45,062 nucleotides of DNA, from positions 1 through 45,062 of the IMG/VR virus record IMGVR_UViG_3300038679_000084, one strand, 5' to 3'. The notes beneath the pieces are model-generated. The model saw only the letters and a program-made list of their open reading frames with translations. It was not told where the DNA came from and made no database searches. The translations under genes were made by a program, and so were the position numbers. This document shows positions 1,444 to 10,361 of this stretch, one piece after another. Positions within the stretch are counted from its first letter, which is position 1; each line of letters starts with the position of its first letter. The stretch is from a virus (taxonomy: Duplodnaviria; Caudoviricetes).

Positions 1444-1630
1444 CGCGAACGAACCCCCCTTCACCTACGACTGGGTCGCCCAGTCGTGCGAGGAAGTGAC
1501 CCGGGCGATCGCCGCGCGCGCCGCCCAGAGGTTCCAGGAATGCCCAACCGACGCTAACCGTGAAGCGCTTGAGGCGGCGTGCGCGCTTTTGGAGCAGTGG
1601 ACAAAGGATCGTTGGCGGAGGACGAGATGA
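1430..1630 (+). CDS. Hypothetical protein
   Basis: ATG1430 (MSRTDANEPP) within track ORF 1328..1630; ATGA overlap with the next gene. Confidence 0.5.
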   Translation: MSRTDANEPPFTYDWVAQSCEEVTRAIAARAAQRFQECPTDANREALEAACALLEQWTKDRWRRTR

Positions 1631-2268
1631 CCACGAGCGTTATGAAAACTACAGGGGATGGCACGCGGGAGTGGCGCTGGCGCGGCCAGCGCCACCGCGA
1701 GGACGGCCCGGCTGTCGAGCGGGCGGATGGCACGCGGGAGTGGCGCTGGCGCGACCAGCGCCACCGCGAGGACGGTCCCGCGATCGAGTGGCCCGACGGC
1801 ACGCGGGAATGGTACTGGCACGACCTGCGCCACCGCGAGGACGGTCCCGCGATCGAGCGGGCGGATGGCACGCGGGAATGGTACTGGCACGACCTGCGCC
1901 ACCGCGAGGACGGTCCCGCGATCGAGCGGGCGGATGGCACGCGGGAATACTGGAGGCACGACCGGCTGCACCGCGGGGACGGCCCCGCGGTCGAGCGCGC
2001 GGATGGCACGCGGGAATGGTGCTGGCATAACCAGCTCCACCGCGAGGACGGCCCGGCTGTCGAGCGGGCGGATGGCAGGCGGGAATGGTACTGGCACAAT
2101 CAGCGCCACCGCGAGGACGGTCCCGCGATCGAGCGGGCGGATGGCACGCGGGAATGGTACTGGCACAACAAGCGCCATCGTGCCGACGGCCCGGTTGTCG
2201 AGTGGCCTGATGGAAGGCTGGAATATTGGCGACACGGCGTGCGCGTGGAAGCGGATGAGGTGGTGTGA
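1627..2268 (+). CDS. HREDGPA-repeat (MORN-variant-like beta-hairpin repeat) protein 1, 8 units
   Basis: 23-aa units HR(E/A/G)DGPA(V/I)E(R/W)(A/P)DGTREWxWxxx; GGAGG RBS; ATGA coupling. Confidence 0.8.
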   Translation: MTTSVMKTTGDGTREWRWRGQRHREDGPAVERADGTREWRWRDQRHREDGPAIEWPDGTREWYWHDLRHREDGPAIERADGTREWYWHDLRHREDGPAIERADGTREYWRHDRLHRGDGPAVERADGTREWCWHNQLHREDGPAVERADGRREWYWHNQRHREDGPAIERADGTREWYWHNKRHRADGPVVEWPDGRLEYWRHGVRVEADEVV

Positions 2269-2633
2269 TGGTCGAGAGCGTCATGTGGGTTACACCGGAT
2301 GGCACGCGGGAATGGTACTGGCATAACCAGCTCCACCGCGCGGACGGCCCGGCTGTCGAGCGGGCGGATGGCAGGTTGGAATGGCGCTGGCACGACCAGC
2401 TGCACCGCGAGGACGGCCCCGCGATCGAGCGGGCGGACGGCACGCGGGAATGGCACTGGCACGACCATCTGCACCGTGAGGACGGCCCTGCTATCGAGCG
2501 GGCGGATGGCCTGCACATATGGTGCTGGCACAACCAGCTCCACCGTGATGACGGTCCCGCGATCGAGTGGCCCAATGGCACGCGGGAATATTGGCGACAC
2601 GGCGTGCTTATATCAGTGGACGAGGTGGGGTGA
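2268..2633 (+). CDS. HREDGPA-repeat protein 2, 4 units
   Basis: TGATG coupling; starts MVESV, ends EYWRHGVLISVDEVG. Confidence 0.8.
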   Translation: MVESVMWVTPDGTREWYWHNQLHRADGPAVERADGRLEWRWHDQLHREDGPAIERADGTREWHWHDHLHREDGPAIERADGLHIWCWHNQLHRDDGPAIEWPNGTREYWRHGVLISVDEVG

Positions 2634-3067
2634 TGGTCGAGAGCGTTATGAAGACCTTAGCGGATGGCACGCGGGAATGGTACTGGCGCGACCAGCGCCA
2701 CCGCGAGGACGGCCCGGCCGGCGAGTGGCCCGATGGCACGCGGGAATGGTACTGGCACGACCAGCTGCACCGCGGGGACGGCCCCGCGGTCGAGCGCGCG
2801 GATGGCACGCGGGACTGGTACTGGCATAACCAGCGCCATCGTGCCGACGGTCCGGCGATCGAGTGGGCGTATGGCGCGCGCATGTGGTACTGGCACGACC
2901 AGCGCCACCGCGAGGACGGCCCGGCTGTTGAGTGGCCCGATGGCACGCGGGAGTGGTACTGGCACGACCTGCGCCACCGCGCGGACGGCCCGGCTGTCGA
3001 GCGGGCGGATGGCGCGCGGGAATGCTGGAGGCACGGCGTGCGCGTGGAAGCGGATGAGGTGGTGTGA
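2633..3067 (+). CDS. HREDGPA-repeat protein 3, 5 units
   Basis: TGATG coupling; starts MVESV; same C-terminus as protein 1 (RHGVRVEADEVV). Confidence 0.8.
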   Translation: MVESVMKTLADGTREWYWRDQRHREDGPAGEWPDGTREWYWHDQLHRGDGPAVERADGTRDWYWHNQRHRADGPAIEWAYGARMWYWHDQRHREDGPAVEWPDGTREWYWHDLRHRADGPAVERADGARECWRHGVRVEADEVV

Positions 3068-3573
3068 TGGTCGAGAGCGTCGTGCGGATTACAATGGATG
3101 GCACGCGGGAATGGTACTGGCGCGACCAGCTGCACCGCGCGGACGGCCCGGCTGTCGAGCGAGCGAGTGGCACGCGGGAATGGTACTGGCATAACCAGCT
3201 CCACCGCGAGGACGGCCCGGCTGTCGAGCGGGCGGATGGCAGGTTGGAATGGCGCTGGCATGATCAGCGCCATCGTGCCGACGGCCCCGCGGTCGAGCGC
3301 GCGGATGGCACGCGCATATGGTACTGGCACGACCTGCGCCACCGCGAGGACGGCCCTGCTATCGAGCGGGCGGATGGCACGCGGGAGTGGTACTGGCACA
3401 ATCAGCGCCACCGCGCGGACGGCCCGGCCGTCGAGTGGCCCGATGGCACGCGCATATGGTACTGGCACGACCAGCTGCACCGCGGGGACGGCCCGGCTAT
3501 CGAGTGTCCTGACGGAAGGCTGGAATATTGGCTGTATGACGCGTTTGTAACAGTGGACGAGGTGACGCGATGA
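3067..3573 (+). CDS. HREDGPA-repeat protein 4, 6 units
   Basis: TGATG coupling; starts MVESV; ATGA overlap with the Tas-like gene. Confidence 0.8.
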   Translation: MVESVVRITMDGTREWYWRDQLHRADGPAVERASGTREWYWHNQLHREDGPAVERADGRLEWRWHDQRHRADGPAVERADGTRIWYWHDLRHREDGPAIERADGTREWYWHNQRHRADGPAVEWPDGTRIWYWHDQLHRGDGPAIECPDGRLEYWLYDAFVTVDEVTR

Positions 3574-4514
3574 CAACCGAGGTACTGGATGACACGATCG
3601 ACGTTTATGATCCGCTGATCAAGCGGCTCGATAAGGACCTGCGGCAGACCGCGAAGGCCTTGGGCACCCCCCAAGCACGGTTGCTCGTGGCGACCTATTA
3701 TATGATGCAGGAGGATCGTAAGCGCGCGCGGGCCCGCCTGGGATCGCGCACGACCGAGAAGCCCATGCGCGTGCTCGAGTGGATGGCGGATCAGTTCGGC
3801 TTACTCGAGAAGCGTATCGTGACCTTGCTCGACTTGTGGTCCGAGCATCACGAAGCCGGGCCTTGGCTGCGGGCGCAAAAGGGGGTCGGCCCCGTGCTCG
3901 CGGCCGGGTTTCTCTCGCTCCTTGACATTGAGCGAGCGAGTACGGCGGGTGCGTTTTGGAAGTTCTGCGGCGTGCCTAGTTCAGGGAAATGGCTCAAGGG
4001 ACAGAAACGTCCGTGGTGCGCGGATGCGCGGCGCTTGTGCTTCTTGGCCGGGCAGAGCTTCATGAAAGTATCCAACCGGGACGATGCGTTCTACGGCGCG
4101 CTCTACAAGCAGCTTAAGGCCGAGGAATGGGAGCGTAACCTTTCCGGCGAGCACGATCGCGTGGGGCGCGTGGATGAGTTCATCGCGCGGTTCAAGCCTG
4201 GCGCACTTACCCCGGACCTGCGCAAGTGGGTGGATGGTGAATTTAATCGGATTGAACCCGCGAGGAAAAGTGATGACGGAGGAGACCTTATTGCGTTGCG
4301 CGGTTTGCGCGATCCTGGCATGGATGGCGTTCGCATGCTTCCTCCTTCTCTTATCCTAAGCCGCGCGCGCTGGCGCGCCGTTACCCTTTTCCTGTCGCAT
4401 CTGCATCAGGTCTGGTATGAGGTTCACTACGGCCGGTCGCCCGCCGAGCCCTACGCGTTCGCGGTTTTAGGCCACGCGCATAAGGTCAACCCGCCCCCAC
4501 CGTGGGTGGGCTAG
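3570..4514 (+). CDS. tasA: TIGR-associated Tas-like protein (Nop / IS110 C-terminal domain, no recognisable nuclease domain; TasA-like)
   Basis: N-terminal coiled coil (ARLLVATYYMMQEDRKR), then WLRAQKGVGPVLAAGFL, AFWKFCG, FYGALYKQLK and ARWRAVTLFLSHL motifs of IS110-Tnp/Nop-like domains. No RuvC/DEDD or HNH domain seen. A dual-repeat array begins at its stop codon. Confidence 0.8.
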   Translation: MTTEVLDDTIDVYDPLIKRLDKDLRQTAKALGTPQARLLVATYYMMQEDRKRARARLGSRTTEKPMRVLEWMADQFGLLEKRIVTLLDLWSEHHEAGPWLRAQKGVGPVLAAGFLSLLDIERASTAGAFWKFCGVPSSGKWLKGQKRPWCADARRLCFLAGQSFMKVSNRDDAFYGALYKQLKAEEWERNLSGEHDRVGRVDEFIARFKPGALTPDLRKWVDGEFNRIEPARKSDDGGDLIALRGLRDPGMDGVRMLPPSLILSRARWRAVTLFLSHLHQVWYEVHYGRSPAEPYAFAVLGHAHKVNPPPPWVG

Positions 4515-4717
4515 CTGGACGAGGAAGACGGTTGGAATTTGTGAACGAGCCGTGTCAACTGATAGTTGCGCAATAAGAACGAGCTAAGCTGCTGGATTGT
4601 TGAAGTGGTAGAACGAGCCGCGCCTGCCAATGGTTACCTAGCAAGAACGAGCTGTCCTGCCCGATGGTTGCGAACCATGAACGAACTGGAACGAGATATA
4701 GTTTAAGGATCGTGAAT
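4513..4717 (+). ncRNA. TIGR-like dual-repeat guide array 1 (6 units, 34-nt period)
   Basis: Edge repeats GAACGAGCY/GAACGAACT at 4543, 4577, 4611, 4645, 4679. Loop repeats GACGGTT, GATAGTT, GATTGTT, AATGGTT, GATGGTT, TATAGTT at 4527, 4561, 4595, 4629, 4663, 4697. Unique 9-nt spacers lie between them (10 nt possible at the two ends). Confidence 0.85.
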
Positions 4718-6551
4718 GCCTGTGCTTGCGCTAGACTTCGAGACTTACTATTCGCCCGATTATACACTGTCGAAAATGACCGCGGAGGAATATGTACGCG
4801 ACGAGCGGTTCGAAGCGCATTGTGTCTCGATTTATGATGGCGCCCGCATGCGAAGCGCGCGGGGAACCGATATCCCCGCGCTCCTCAGCGAGTATGACTG
4901 GCCAACTATCACGCTGATCGCGCATAACGCGGCCTTCGACGGCTTCATCTTGACGGACCGCTATGGGTGCTACCCGGCGCATTACCTTTGCACGATGGGC
5001 GCGGCGCGGTACGTTTGGGGCTCGCATGTGAAGGTTTCGCTTGAGAGCTGCCTGGCACGGCTTGGTATGGCACCCAAGTCCGTTCCGTACTCCTCGATGA
5101 TCGGGAAGCGATGGGCTGATATGCATGGCGCGCTTCAAGATCTTATCGTCGCGGGTTGCGAGCAGGATACGCGACAGACCTGGGCGTTGGCGGGGCGCTT
5201 GGTTCCCCAGGTACCGGACCTCGAGCTATCCATGATCGACATGACGGCGAAGCTCTTCACGGAGCCGCGGCTCGAAGGCGATACGGACGTGCTCCAGGCG
5301 CTCGCGCTTCAAGCGCGGCGCGATCGCGCCGACGCGCGCGCCCGCCTTGGCGTCCCGGAGGGGAAGCCGCTCTCGCAGGCCCAGTTCGTCGCGAAGCTAG
5401 AGGAACTCGGGATTGAACCGGAGTATAAGCAGGGGAAGACTGGGCTTATCTCCGCGACGGCGAAAAAAGACGAGTTCATGCTACGCCTACTCGATGGGTC
5501 GTTTGGCGAGGATGCCGAACTCCTGGCGGAAGCGTTCTGCGCGGCGCGAAGCTCGATTCAAGAGACGCGGGCGGACCGCTATCTCGGCATGGCGCGCCGT
5601 GGACCTCTCCCCGTGGCGCTAACCTATAGGGGGGCTGTATCTGGGCGTTGGACAGGCAAGGGGGGCCGGACGAATTTTCAAAATCTCCCCAGGAATGGCG
5701 ATATCCGCAAGTCGCTGCGCGCGCCCGAGGGCCACGTACTGATCGGCGCCGACCTGTCGCAGATCGAATTGGTGATCAACGCCTACCTCGCGGGCGAGGG
5801 CGCGGTGCTGGACGCGCGGCGCGCGAAGCGCGATGTTTATTGCGAGACGGCGAGCGCGCATTATGGACGGACCATCGTGAAGGGGGGCCTGGAGCGCCAG
5901 ACTTTCAAAGTCGTGTGCCTTGCATCGCAGTTTGGATTGGGCCACAAGACGCTTGCCGTCCTCCTACGCATTCCAGCGGACCAGGCGGCGCCGCTCACAG
6001 ACTCGTGGCGCGCCCGAAATCGGCGTATCTGCGCGTCGTGGCGCCGCGCGGCCTACCTGATCCCCGTACTGGCGGGGCTTGGGAAACCTGAGAAATTCCT
6101 CGGCTGCACCATCGAGCCCGGCCGCGTCGTGTTGCCGTCCGGCAACCAGATGCTCTATGAAGTCGAATGGTCCGATGAACGGAAATCCTGGATGCGGCGC
6201 AAATACGCGGCGCAAAGCTTCTTCACGGGCTGTACGCTCTGCGAGAATATCGTGCAGGGCACGGCGCGAGACGTACTAGCGGTCGCGGTTAAGCGCGTTT
6301 GCCGCGCGACCGGCCTTTATCCCGTGCTCACGACGCACGATGACGCGGTTTGGTGCGTCCCGATCGCGCGCGTGCCCGAGGTGTTGGCCGCCGTGGAGGC
6401 CGCGTTTTCCACAGCGCCCGCCTGGTTGCCGGATTGCCCCATTGATAGCGAAGTAAAGGCGGGAACCGATTATGGACTTACCGGAGACCTGGAATTTTAC
6501 ATACAGCAAGCTGCGGGCCTTCGAGAACTGCCCGAAGGCGTTCCACCATAG
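4716..6551 (+). CDS. DNA polymerase family A with 3'-5' exonuclease
   Basis: ExoI LDFETY, ExoII AHNAAFD, motif A ADLSQIE, motif B RQTFKVVCLASQFG, ENIVQGTARD, motif C THDD. Confidence 0.92.
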   Translation: MPVLALDFETYYSPDYTLSKMTAEEYVRDERFEAHCVSIYDGARMRSARGTDIPALLSEYDWPTITLIAHNAAFDGFILTDRYGCYPAHYLCTMGAARYVWGSHVKVSLESCLARLGMAPKSVPYSSMIGKRWADMHGALQDLIVAGCEQDTRQTWALAGRLVPQVPDLELSMIDMTAKLFTEPRLEGDTDVLQALALQARRDRADARARLGVPEGKPLSQAQFVAKLEELGIEPEYKQGKTGLISATAKKDEFMLRLLDGSFGEDAELLAEAFCAARSSIQETRADRYLGMARRGPLPVALTYRGAVSGRWTGKGGRTNFQNLPRNGDIRKSLRAPEGHVLIGADLSQIELVINAYLAGEGAVLDARRAKRDVYCETASAHYGRTIVKGGLERQTFKVVCLASQFGLGHKTLAVLLRIPADQAAPLTDSWRARNRRICASWRRAAYLIPVLAGLGKPEKFLGCTIEPGRVVLPSGNQMLYEVEWSDERKSWMRRKYAAQSFFTGCTLCENIVQGTARDVLAVAVKRVCRATGLYPVLTTHDDAVWCVPIARVPEVLAAVEAAFSTAPAWLPDCPIDSEVKAGTDYGLTGDLEFYIQQAAGLRELPEGVPP

Positions 6552-7110
6552 GTACGTCGCCAAGGACGTACGCGACGAGCTGGGCGCCGCCGCGCGCCAT
6601 GGCACAGCCGTGCACGCCGCTCTCGAGGCCCGTGTCAAGACTGGAGAAACAAGCGATTTGACCGCACCGCATGAGCCGGTGATTGGGCTGCTGCTTGCAA
6701 CCGCGCCCTGGCAAGCGGAGGTCGAGGTCGCGGTGGATGCTGATTGGGGGGCGGCGGCATGGTCGGGATCCTGGTTGCGCGGCAAGATAGATTTGCACGC
6801 CCATAATGCTTCAACTAATCGTGTTGTGCTGCTCGATTGGAAAACAGGTAAGGTCCGCGAGGATAAGTTCGAGTTGCAGGTTCAGGCCGCGCTTCTCGAA
6901 CCGATCTACCCAGGCGCGACGTTTTCGGGTTTCTACTACTGGTTGAAAACCCAGGCGCCCGGGATGCTCTATTCGCTTGACGTAGGCGCCGCGCGGCGGC
7001 GCGTTTCCGCGCTGGCCGCGAAGGTAGCGGCGTCGGATCCTGACCCAAAGCCCGGCCCTCTCTGTGGGTATTGTCCCGTGACAGCGTGCCGTTTCTGGCG
7101 CCCAGGTTGA
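6472..7110 (+). CDS. Cas4-like / RecB-family PD-(D/E)XK exonuclease
   Basis: N-terminal YSKL..FENCP, GTAVHAALE, GKID, LDWKTG, Q..A motif, C-terminal CGYCP...C (1+3 Cys Fe-S pattern). Confidence 0.85.
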   Translation: MDLPETWNFTYSKLRAFENCPKAFHHRYVAKDVRDELGAAARHGTAVHAALEARVKTGETSDLTAPHEPVIGLLLATAPWQAEVEVAVDADWGAAAWSGSWLRGKIDLHAHNASTNRVVLLDWKTGKVREDKFELQVQAALLEPIYPGATFSGFYYWLKTQAPGMLYSLDVGAARRRVSALAAKVAASDPDPKPGPLCGYCPVTACRFWRPG

Positions 7111-7117
7111 AAACCTG

Positions 7118-7355
7118 AAGTGAACTGAATATTGGGATGGTTAATTATGCAGAATGAACTCCACAGGCGAACGCTTGATGAATGCGAATGAACTAGCCGA
7201 CTAGACGCCTGAAGACCGGAAATGAACAGTAAACCACGATCGTTACGCTGCGGGAATGAACTGAAAAGTCCGATCGTTGCATGGCGTGAATGAACTGGGT
7301 ATCTCGATCGTTAATCGTCGTGAATGAGCTGAATACTGGAACCGTTAAGGTGAAG
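7118..7355 (+). ncRNA. TIGR-like dual-repeat guide array 2 (7 units, 34-nt period)
   Basis: Edge repeats (consensus GAATGAACT) at 7118, 7152, 7186, 7220, 7254, 7288, 7322. Loop repeats GATGGTT, AACGCTT, GACGCCT, GATCGTT x3, AACCGTT at 7136, 7170, 7204, 7238, 7272, 7306, 7340. All spacers are 9 nt. Confidence 0.85.
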
Positions 7356-7364
7356 GAGCGTATC

Positions 7365-7697
7365 ATGAACTGGATGGACAATATAAAAACTAACCCATGG
7401 GCGGAGCCTGACGTGTTGGAGTCCGCCATCAAGGCCGAATATCGCGCGAAGCTGCGCGCGATCGGTGCCTACGTGTATAGCGTGCACGTCAACCATTACG
7501 GCCGCGCCGCCGTGGATGACTTCATATGCTACAAGGGCACGTTCTACGCGATCGAGGGCAAGCGCCCGAAGGGCAAGGTTACAGCCCGCCAGCAATCCGT
7601 GCTCGACGAAGTAGCGGCGGCGGGGGGCGGCGTGATCGTCGCCCGCTCTTGGGAGGATGTTTGGCGCGGCATGGGCTTTCCGGCGGACCCCGCGTGA
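7365..7697 (+). CDS. VRR-NUC domain nuclease (putative resolvase)
   Basis: LESAIK, DFIC..G.FYAIEGKRPKGKVTARQ, AAGG..IVARS. ATG7365 follows GAAGGAG; the track's N-terminal extension is array sequence. Confidence 0.85.
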   Translation: MNWMDNIKTNPWAEPDVLESAIKAEYRAKLRAIGAYVYSVHVNHYGRAAVDDFICYKGTFYAIEGKRPKGKVTARQQSVLDEVAAAGGGVIVARSWEDVWRGMGFPADPA

Positions 7698-9091
7698 CCT
7701 GCCAGCCACCCGCCCACTACGACTTCCCCGCCGCGCCCGGGTTGGTACCAATGGACAACCAGCGCATGCGCGCGGCTTTTCTGGCGGGGCACAAGCGGGC
7801 ATTCGAACTGAGTGAGATGCGTACCGGGAAAACACTCACGGCGCTGTGGGCGGCGGATTACATCATGCACGGGTACGGCGACGCTAAGCGTGCGCTGATT
7901 GTCGCTCCCCGCAGCATCATGCGGCTGGTCTGGCTGGCGCACGTGCGCGACCATCTGGGCGGGCATCGCACGGGGGTCGTGCTCGAGGGTGATATGGCCA
8001 AGCGGCGCAAGACGCTGGCGATGGACCACGCGGGCTTCGTGATCACGAACCCGGACGCGCTCAAGACGCCGGTCGGCAAGGACCTCTTTGACATGGCCAA
8101 GGCGGGCGAGTTCGCCGTCATGATCTTCGACGAGGCGACGACGTACCGTCACACGCGCACGAAGCGTTGGCGGACCACGTTCGCCGTCGCCAGCCAAATC
8201 GAATACGTCTGGCTCCTGACCGGCACGCCGACGCCGCAGGCCCCCACGGACGCGTACGGGCTAGAGGCGCTGGCCTTTGGCCCGCGCGGCTCATTCGTAC
8301 AGTGCAAGGAACGCCTGATGGTCCAGATCGACCAATTCAAATGGGCGCCGCGCCCAGGGCATGAGGCCCTGGTCGCCAAGATGCTATCCCCCGCCGTGCG
8401 GGTGCGGCAGGATGAGTGTTTCGCGGTTCAGAAGGCGCCGCCGCAGAACAGGGCGGTTGAGTTGACCTCGGAGCAGAAAAAGGCGTTTGCTTCGCTCCGC
8501 GCCGGCGGCGCCGTGCGGGTCGCGGGTAAGACCATCACAGCCGTGCACGCGGCGGCGACGCGCCTCAAGTTCATGCAGATTTCGGCGGGCATGATCTATG
8601 ACGCTGACCACGATATCGTAAAAGTGAATTGCGCTTCCAGGCTTGAGGCGCTAAAAGAAATCGCGATGGAGGCTCCGGCCAAGATCATAGTGTTCGCATC
8701 CTTCCATGGCGTCCTTGACGTATTGGAGGCTGAGTTCGGGAAAGATTGTGTGAGGGTTGATGGCACGGTTTCCGATAAGCATATCGAGCAGCGCGTCAAC
8801 GCGTTTCAGTCGGGCGAGCCACGTTGGCTCCTGGCGCATCCGGCCGTTGTGGCACGCGGGCATAAGTTCACCTGCGCTTCCACGATCGTATGGTTTACGC
8901 CTACTGACAAGAGTGAGGAATATCAGCAAGCCAATCAACGGATATTTGGCCCTGACCAACAAGCAAATTGCTCCATCATCAACCTGGTAAGCTGCCCATT
9001 GGAAGCTAATATATTCGCCGCCCGCGCGGGTAGCGAGGCACTGCAGGAACAAGCGCTATCGATCATCGAAGGAAAGGGACTCGAATGGTAG
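7694..9091 (+). CDS. SNF2-like superfamily 2 helicase
   Basis: MRTGKT Walker A, FDEA Walker B, LTGTP, IIVFA, QANQRI; GTGA coupling at 7694. Confidence 0.88.
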   Translation: MTCQPPAHYDFPAAPGLVPMDNQRMRAAFLAGHKRAFELSEMRTGKTLTALWAADYIMHGYGDAKRALIVAPRSIMRLVWLAHVRDHLGGHRTGVVLEGDMAKRRKTLAMDHAGFVITNPDALKTPVGKDLFDMAKAGEFAVMIFDEATTYRHTRTKRWRTTFAVASQIEYVWLLTGTPTPQAPTDAYGLEALAFGPRGSFVQCKERLMVQIDQFKWAPRPGHEALVAKMLSPAVRVRQDECFAVQKAPPQNRAVELTSEQKKAFASLRAGGAVRVAGKTITAVHAAATRLKFMQISAGMIYDADHDIVKVNCASRLEALKEIAMEAPAKIIVFASFHGVLDVLEAEFGKDCVRVDGTVSDKHIEQRVNAFQSGEPRWLLAHPAVVARGHKFTCASTIVWFTPTDKSEEYQQANQRIFGPDQQANCSIINLVSCPLEANIFAARAGSEALQEQALSIIEGKGLEW

Positions 9092-9522
9092 ACGCAAGCG
9101 AGCTTTTTAAACAGATTACGGCGCGTGAGTCACAGCTTGAGAATTTCAAGACAGTCGTCATCAAGCCTTTGCAGGCGCAGATCGATGATCTGAGGTCGCG
9201 ATTGGCTGCTTATATGACCGAGCAGAACTTGAATTCCGTGAACACGGATTTTGGGCGCGCGCATTTCTCGACGGCGTTGAGCGCGAAGGTTATTGACAAG
9301 GACGCATGGCTCGACTTTGTCGGGGAGAATGACCAATGGGACATGCTGACAAAGCATGTCGCGACACAAGTCATAGCCGACTGGCACGACAAGCAGGTCG
9401 CGGTCTATGAAAGGGAGAAAGCAGCCGGCAAGGACGTTAAATATCCGGATTACCCAGACGGGCTCCAGGTCGAGCGGGTCCGCAGGCTTAATATCGCACT
9501 CAAGAAGGACGTTATCGAATGA
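9085..9522 (+). CDS. Hypothetical replication-module protein (coiled-coil N-terminus)
   Basis: 145 aa, overlaps both neighbours, sits between the helicase and the putative SSB. Confidence 0.65.
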   Translation: MVDASELFKQITARESQLENFKTVVIKPLQAQIDDLRSRLAAYMTEQNLNSVNTDFGRAHFSTALSAKVIDKDAWLDFVGENDQWDMLTKHVATQVIADWHDKQVAVYEREKAAGKDVKYPDYPDGLQVERVRRLNIALKKDVIE

Positions 9523-10361
9523 TCGAGTTCCCGAATTTGTACAATGACGCGAACGCGGCGCAGGAAACATCGGCGCGCCCCCCCCGCGTCTCGTTGCTGA
9601 ATGACCGTTTCACCCTCCTGGACGAAAACGGCCAGGAAGCCGGGGAAGTCCATGGCGAGTTCAAGTTTATGGTCGCCTACATCCGCCCTTCCGTGTTTCG
9701 GGTTTTCTACGGCAGCAAATATGACCCTGAAAACCCGTCCGGTCCGGCGTGCGTCTCCTACGACGGCAAACGGCCGGATGCCACGGAGAGCCCGGAACCC
9801 CAGCATGAGCTATGCTCGGCTTGTCCCCGCGCGGTCTGGGGCTCCAAGGAAGGTTTCAGCGGCGGGAAAAGCCGCGAGTGTCAGAACCGCGTCCTGGTCG
9901 TCGCCATGACATCCGATAAGAAGTTCTGGCAGTTCGCGATCCCGCCGGCGAGCCAAAAGAATTGGAAGCTGTTCGTGGACGAGCAGCGCCGCACAGGGAA
10001 ACCTTTGCAGGCGATGATTGCCGGCGCCAAGTTCCGGCGGGGCACGAAGATTCTTGAGTTCGTCGCGCGCGGGACAGCGCCGCTGGATTACCAGGAAGCG
10101 ATCGCGACCTTTACCGCGCGCGCGGGTGAGAATATGACTGGCCCACCGCGCGCGCTCGATGTGGAGCTGCTCGCGCCGTACATGTCGCTTACGCCGCGCC
10201 TTACGCACGAGCCCGAGCCCGAGCCCGCGCCCGAGCCCGAGCCCAAACCCGTCTCGAAGCGGCGCGCGGTAAAATCGCCGGAGCCGCCGGCGGAAGCCGA
10301 TGAGCCGGCGGCTGAAGCGGACGCCCTGGCGGCGCACCTTCGCCAAGCATTTGGGCTGTGA
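9519..10361 (+). CDS. Putative ssDNA-binding / annealing protein
   Basis: Cys pattern C..DG, C..CP...WGS, C; acidic and Pro-rich C-terminal tail; position in the replication module. Function inferred. Confidence 0.5.
   Translation: MIEFPNLYNDANAAQETSARPPRVSLLNDRFTLLDENGQEAGEVHGEFKFMVAYIRPSVFRVFYGSKYDPENPSGPACVSYDGKRPDATESPEPQHELCSACPRAVWGSKEGFSGGKSRECQNRVLVVAMTSDKKFWQFAIPPASQKNWKLFVDEQRRTGKPLQAMIAGAKFRRGTKILEFVARGTAPLDYQEAIATFTARAGENMTGPPRALDVELLAPYMSLTPRLTHEPEPEPAPEPEPKPVSKRRAVKSPEPPAEADEPAAEADALAAHLRQAFGL

Follow-up and report, generated by a model that had tools for sequence, protein, structure and literature searches.

Dual-repeat TIGR-Tas systems are the closest described relatives of the phage locus analysed here, and the available portions of their literature provide several points of comparison. 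According to the accessible text of Faure et al. (PMC12045711), TIGR arrays have repeats of 8–12 nt and are flanked by half edges, their box motifs may diverge yet covary between edge and loop, and an extra edge-repeat pair with covariation is described; a Watson–Crick pair between boxes C and D has been described as conserved for TasR arrays. The accessible portion of Xu et al. (10.64898/2026.09.09.750476) presents the dual-repeat guide as 36 nt, a length termed "typically", "uniform" or "fixed" and to which processing is tied, describes insertion 2 as longer in dual-repeat Tas, and reports that a nuclease-free TasA (the stem-loop MbTasA) represses transcription in E. coli. FpTasA is the characterised dual-repeat TasA. 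In the structural descriptions at hand, H256 of SpTasH stacks on the box C adenine A5, H299 of PlTasA stacks on the box C adenine, with R306 and K310 contacting bases of the same box, and the mid-loop of TaTasR makes no clear sequence-specific protein contacts.

Our locus shares different features with different members of this group. First, SpTIGR-TasH from Salicola phage CGphi29 (Faure et al. 2025, PMC12045711; PDB 9W03/9W04), as described in the available text, is built of units AAGCGAGCCA + 8 + AAGACAACCA + 8 in which box D is not UG. It has the same 10+8+n+8 register and 8-nt spacers as our locus, whose edge differs from GAACGAGCCG at 3 of 10 bases, and the two proteins, about 25% identical, share a Y/H dyad and an aromatic–basic pair; unlike our locus, SpTIGR-TasH has a 10-nt loop, a 36-nt unit, a CCA box with H256/R263/K267 and an HNH nuclease. 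Second, TaTasR and ParTasR share the fold (9MTY), the edge pairing pattern and a mid-edge processing model, but have UG...CCA units of 9+9+9+9, a RuvC nuclease, 9-nt spacers, a UG box D and a very short insertion 2, which is long in our TasA. Third, the dual-repeat TasA clade of Faure Table S1 (the LPPAHIHARA/LPPAQIDARA family), in the part of that table available, contains Nop-only proteins like ours at 35–49% identity, with GA-starting edges and, in many members, a long insertion 2; unlike our locus, its parsable arrays have a 36-nt unit in 66 of 67 cases, box C is mostly CCA, TCA or CCG, and R268 and K272 are nearly invariant. Judged on its sequences, the locus is a recurring variant of dual-repeat TIGR-TasA and no new subfamily. 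As far as these comparisons reach, it departs only from the 36-nt and box-pair descriptors, from which other members of the published set depart too, and what is unusual is a loop 2 nt short combined with an apparent replacement of the box-C-reading residues in its TasA and two sister proteins.

The window, by which we mean the whole stretch of DNA analysed (45,062 nt), is a 45-kb virus record with a replication block comprising family A polymerase, PD-(D/E)XK nuclease, VRR-NUC, SNF2 helicase and primase-like genes. The tasA gene (3570..4514, + strand) encodes 314 aa with a Nop domain only and is followed by array 1 (4513..4718, +). Array 2 (7118..7360, +) lies 2.4 kb further on, between the VRR-NUC gene and that for the PD-(D/E)XK nuclease (6472..7110, +; PF12705, E 5e-16), a context gene on its 5' side, and the family A DNA polymerase gene (4716..6551, +; PF00476, E 5e-19) is situated between both arrays. 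Gene and arrays are identical across three IMG/VR contigs, runs X8 and X11 partly cover both arrays with zero differences, and no close relative of this phage was found among cultured phages. Four tandem ORFs (1579–3573, +) that run on into the tasA start consist of about 26 copies of a REWYWHDQRHREDGPAVERADGT-like repeat of 23 aa, with a period of 69 bp; they have a weak, below-cut-off match to DUF6745 and no PHROG match.

That the protein belongs to TIGR-TasA, as a sequence-only reading of this DNA had proposed, was confirmed by two routes. By sequence, it matches PDB entries of TaTasR (E 4e-9) and TasH (E 3e-5), and its AlphaFold model (pLDDT 85) retrieves only TasH and TasR proteins among the ten best Foldseek hits. 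A profile search found no HNH or RuvC family match, and the absence of a nuclease domain identifies the protein as TasA, the type with a Nop domain and coiled coil alone. Y295 and H302 align with the C-terminal SpTasH processing dyad Y289/H296, and F158 and K166 with its unwinding pair W203/K211. The gene, its fold match, the arrays, their register and these residues are directly established. It is barely credible that the gene is instead a remnant of an IS110/IS116 transposase beside unrelated repeats: there is a weak PF02371 match, below the cut-off, and PHROG 4285 is labelled transposase, but the DEDD/RuvC domain is absent, only the C-terminal PF02371 stretch is present in an all-helical model, Foldseek E-values rank TasH and TasR above IS621, and the family motifs occur at least 764 and at least 111 times in the available part of TIGR Table S1.

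The two arrays share one strict period. Array 1 has a leading loop at 4527, followed by five 34-nt units whose edges are at 4543, 4577, 4611, 4645 and 4679, while array 2 has seven units with edges from 7118 to 7322. The 34-nt unit claimed for both arrays stands: a pattern written from these repeats has 12 matches where chance would give 0.16 on average, none of 100 shuffles gives as many, and autocorrelation at 34 is 0.48 and 0.54 for the two arrays, with 0.37 and 0.36 as the 95th percentiles of the null. A pattern scan revealed no third array in the window. The original parse of 9+9+7+9, however, was one base off. The base 3' of the 9-nt edge is a purine in 11/12 units (G in 9; p about 0.003), as is the base 3' of the 7-nt loop in 12/13 (p about 0.002), so that the unit consists of an edge of 10, a spacer of 8, a loop of 8 rather than 7 and another spacer of 8, i.e., GAAYGARCYG + 8 + GAYNGTTR + 8. 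SpTasH and the 66 related 36-nt arrays have their register in common with this unit, and in the corrected register a box C is present, as CYG in the edge and TTR in the loop. Thus, the impression that the repeats contain neither CCA nor UG is accurate as to these motifs as written, neither of which occurs in the window repeats, but not as to box C itself; the statement that tigRNAs are about 36 nt with CCA and UG motifs matches the published length, whereas UG is not general, as seen in SpTasH.

Other properties of the arrays are those of TIGR. Repeats of 10 and 8 nt alternate between 8-nt spacers, edge and loop both open with RA and close with YYR, seven columns are invariant over 12 units at an exact 34-nt period, and every spacer is different. 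Truncated edges flank the arrays: AGCTG at the 5' end of array 1 overlaps the tasA stop, GAATG at its 3' end overlaps the polymerase start codon (4713–4718), and GAGCG, the last half edge of array 2, shares bases with the AGGAG site that precedes the VRR-NUC gene (7352–7367). Since half edges overlap the polymerase start and the AGGAG site, processing could affect how the genes that follow are translated. There is covariation between edge positions 4 and 7 (C–G in array 1, U–A in array 2), which can pair as C–G, U–A or U–G in 11 of 12 units; this corresponds to the extra edge pair mentioned above. The box D/C pair (edge 3–8), on the other hand, is A–C in 11/12 edges, and loop 3–6 is unpaired; across the 36-nt arrays of the clade, the edge 3–8 pair is formed in 89% and unpaired in 11%, so that a box C/D Watson–Crick pair is no strict criterion of the family. 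A scan for sigma-70 promoters or terminators flanking the arrays found none, and the arrays have no Rfam match. Loop–spacer hairpins noticed by eye have no excess hairpin energy (permutation p 0.42–0.72), and the stem-loop TIGR class was rejected, given conserved edge repeats, the Y/H dyad and this lack of excess.

Where the unit lost two bases has a bearing on guide function, and mid-loop is the most likely site. The loop behaves as the elastic part, because the distance from box C to GA remains 8 nt and because the extra base of 35-nt units lies inside the loop in 10/18 of those listed. An improbable alternative is that the bases were lost from spacer A: as in TaTasR, a pair between the loop G and the base that opens box C would close a loop of four bases, and spacer A would consequently pair over about 7 bases, making targeting asymmetric. 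Loop position 1 and the base that opens box C are indeed able to pair in 83% of the 180 units of 34-nt arrays, and in 11/12 window units, but the figure is 82% in 36-nt arrays and therefore reflects the invariant G and Y. In addition, GA opens edge and loop alike. Across the 13 34-nt loci, 99% of units have a loop that opens with RA at 8 nt from the edge, and 96% have one that closes with YR.

These 13 loci include 12 non-redundant ones besides ours in which 34-nt arrays lie beside Tas genes (L005, L087, L090, L093, L094, L096, L097, L103, L104, L105, L106 and L131). A general 34-nt pattern detected L087, L090, L093, L094, L096, L097, L103, L104 and L105, besides L005; L106 was found in metagenomes, where a YTR 34-nt pattern occurs on this one contig, and L131 in a Woesearchaeota MAG. 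Matches without Tas were dropped (two of three GTDB matches, L132 and L133, and 16/24 matches of another search). The loops of these loci include GATACCCA, GAACATCA, GAATTTCA, GAAGACCA and GACGTTTG; compared with our locus, their boxes C are mostly CCA or TCA, R268 is kept and they sit on other branches. Mapped onto a tree of 33 rows, the 34-nt label takes six changes, at least three of them forced by starred branches, and the 34-nt rows are grouped together in 0/200 bootstrap trees. Mixed loop lengths occur within arrays of L090, L096 and L103 (34/35 nt) and of L141 (35–40 nt), with spacers mostly of 8 nt. L087, L093, L094, L096 and L106 have 53–70 extra residues in the wedge loop, where dual-repeat Tas is described as compact. 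In L104 and L105 the array runs in frame into an ORF upstream of the TasA core, an arrangement already reported in some intragenic tigRNAs.

The sequence-only reading had further proposed a divergent subfamily with its own guide scaffold; the scaffold half of this proposal is overstated, and the subfamily half survives in part. The exact edge-plus-GATNGTT scaffold occurs in IMG/VR only in the three copies of this phage, but a GA start and a 10-nt edge are standard in the clade: edges of related viral loci are GARYGARYCA-like and start with GA, 5/7 of the window edge 10-mers tested occur exactly in other loci (GAATGAACTG in L055, L103 and L114), and L103, with the same 10+8+8+8 unit, has a close scaffold, GARTGARYTG / GAYGTKTG. 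Among 77 related viral loci, arrays are 36 nt in 66, 34 nt in one and not parsable in 10. When repeats and proteins were set against the published set and a tree, as the sequence-only reading had suggested, the 34-nt loci came out scattered, and three have proteins in Table S1, where, in the part available, those matching L005, L104/L105 and L097 are present (3/6 peptide terms matched). Three peptides specific to the window protein were not found among the 9,182 Table S1 rows searched. Hence, what remains of a divergent subfamily is a small lineage, described below, since 34-nt units recur on separate branches. The window unit does not conform to the 36-nt descriptor, as in loci with proteins in the published set. 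No 34-nt tigRNA unit was found in the available text of the TIGR-Tas literature searched (PMC12045711, 10.64898/2026.09.09.750476, PMC13421893, 10.64898/2026.08.11.744272 and 10.64898/2026.07.15.738680); Faure figs S4–S5 may already show such arrays.

An insertion of roughly 60 aa had also been singled out in the protein. It is real, and between Y179 and L257 (codons 179–257; 4104..4340, +) there are 77 aa compared with 41–43 in most viral relatives, but the extra length is about 65 aa only relative to TaTasR and about 35 aa relative to the clade. It does not mark a subfamily: it maps to TaTasR 268–276, the described "insertion 2", and in a sample of 212 homologues with a bias to the query it is at least 60 aa long in 115 and at least 77 aa long in 43. 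EWERNL rows number at least 15 in the available part of Faure Table S1, with long inserts in 7/7 of the rows listed. In the model, the region is mostly helical, with its lowest pLDDT (53–66) around residues 221–250. The idea that a long insertion is required for a 34-nt unit was abandoned: it is present in 7/13 34-nt loci and absent from 6, compared with 4/64 others, so it is not obligate, and there are only two starred independent pairs. Y269 is lost in 12/13 34-nt loci, again with too few independent pairs for a test.

The residues that would read box C set this protein apart. At the corresponding positions, mapped to SpTasH by alignment and to PlTasA by a hand count on its Table S1 sequence, it has L261, W268 and T272, with residue 261 aligning with SpTasH H256 and PlTasA H299. 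Among the 212 homologues, R268 is kept in 206, K272 in 202 and N150 in 203, and all three are replaced here; R268 is kept in 76/76 other rows, all other 34-nt loci included. Across 77 TasA loci, a G at the end of box C is found either in both repeats, edge and loop (14/14), or in neither of them (63/63); the 14 with G all have a residue other than His/Gln at 261 (Arg in 11), while His/Gln is kept in 63/63. It is possible that residue 261 encodes, on the protein side, which purine box C carries; the association rests on one starred independent pair (six when the best tree is used), a number too small to be tested.

The same changes extend to a sister lineage. With P0061 and P0059, its two nearest proteins, both of which lack R268 and have T272, our TasA forms a starred clade (support 96/94, 33-row tree), and a small divergent TasA lineage is thus recognisable, by phylogeny, from changes at the box-C-reading residues. 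P0061 is encoded in a sister phage, L135 (polymerase 44%, nuclease 31%); a cluster member of the TasA of L135 is annotated in a Dehalococcoidia MAG, a weak host hint. There, degenerate GAG....CTR repeats with an 18-nt spacing follow the nuclease gene and precede the polymerase gene, at sites corresponding to arrays 2 and 1 (7982–8264 and 9412–9570). With a pattern chosen after looking, 9/14 plus-strand matches fall in these 507 of 12,990 bases; autocorrelation at or below the null makes the repeats borderline by themselves. No array lies beside the tas gene of L135, which has moved away from the repeats. Provided that they represent a genuine 36-nt array, both the CTR box and the replaced residues seem to predate the 34-nt unit.

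Altogether, these features could also be those of a TIGR-TasA in decay, whose box-C readers are lost and whose drifted repeats give weak, promiscuous or absent guide binding. The replacement of R268, K272 and N150 fits decay, and could mean relaxed rather than orthogonal recognition; the branch is long (1.48 among viral loci), the edge 3–8 pair is gone in 11/12 units, the arrays are short, and the sister phage has only degenerate repeats, none adjoining tas. Nevertheless, we regard decay as unlikely, in view of the exact 34-nt period over 12 units with invariant columns and all-different spacers, an intact ORF with both the Y/H dyad and the aromatic–basic pair, and W268/T272 and a CTR box common to a sister protein only 45–49% identical. 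The altered box-C residues would give the proposed orthogonality a structural reason.

The reading that we favour, and consider probable, is that this phage TasA and its two 34-base dual-repeat arrays produce 34-nt two-spacer guides that direct binding, without cutting, to 16 bp of DNA, probably blocking transcription. The arrays would be transcribed by read-through, and Y295/H302 would cut each edge between G5 and A6, giving a predicted 34-nt guide ARCYG-8-GAYNGUUR-8-GAAYG. A pocket remodelled around L261, W268, R269 and T272 is likely to read the CYG/TTR box. A TasA dimer with its guide may then recognise 16-bp sites through two 8-base duplexes, the target being spacer A joined to spacer B in reverse complement; the outcome would be repression, rather than cleavage, of host or competing mobile DNA. 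Apart from the array, the phage contains no self-target with up to two mismatches. Within the fetched loci (1,156 guides, 1.18 Mb), there are 0 exact and 24 near targets at gap 0, compared with 22–26 near targets in five control orientations, which is no target signal; this locus brings no advance in target and spacer-acquisition biology.

The 34-nt units may have gone unnoticed for a methodological reason. In a rough simulation, built on an incomplete description of the dual-repeat method in the available source and approximate for that reason, a seed rule demanding 4-base gaps seeds 0/13 34-nt arrays compared with 28/64 36-nt arrays, so catalogues may undercount such arrays. A wider proposal, which we put forward only tentatively and think has a minority chance of being right, combines an unreported, repeatedly evolved 34-nt dual-repeat class missed by the detection rule with a 261/268/272 box C code (His/Gln–A, Arg–G, Trp/Thr–CUR). 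If it is true, guides with its own YUR box would be the only ones that the window TasA loads, no naturally orthogonal TIGR repressor scaffold would be more compact, and its box specificity could be switched through two or three substitutions. All-34-nt arrays on several branches directly test the "fixed 36 nt" of the available text of Xu et al., and the association between box C bases and a few helix residues may offer an inexpensive way to obtain orthogonal pairs of Tas and guide with which repression could be multiplexed.
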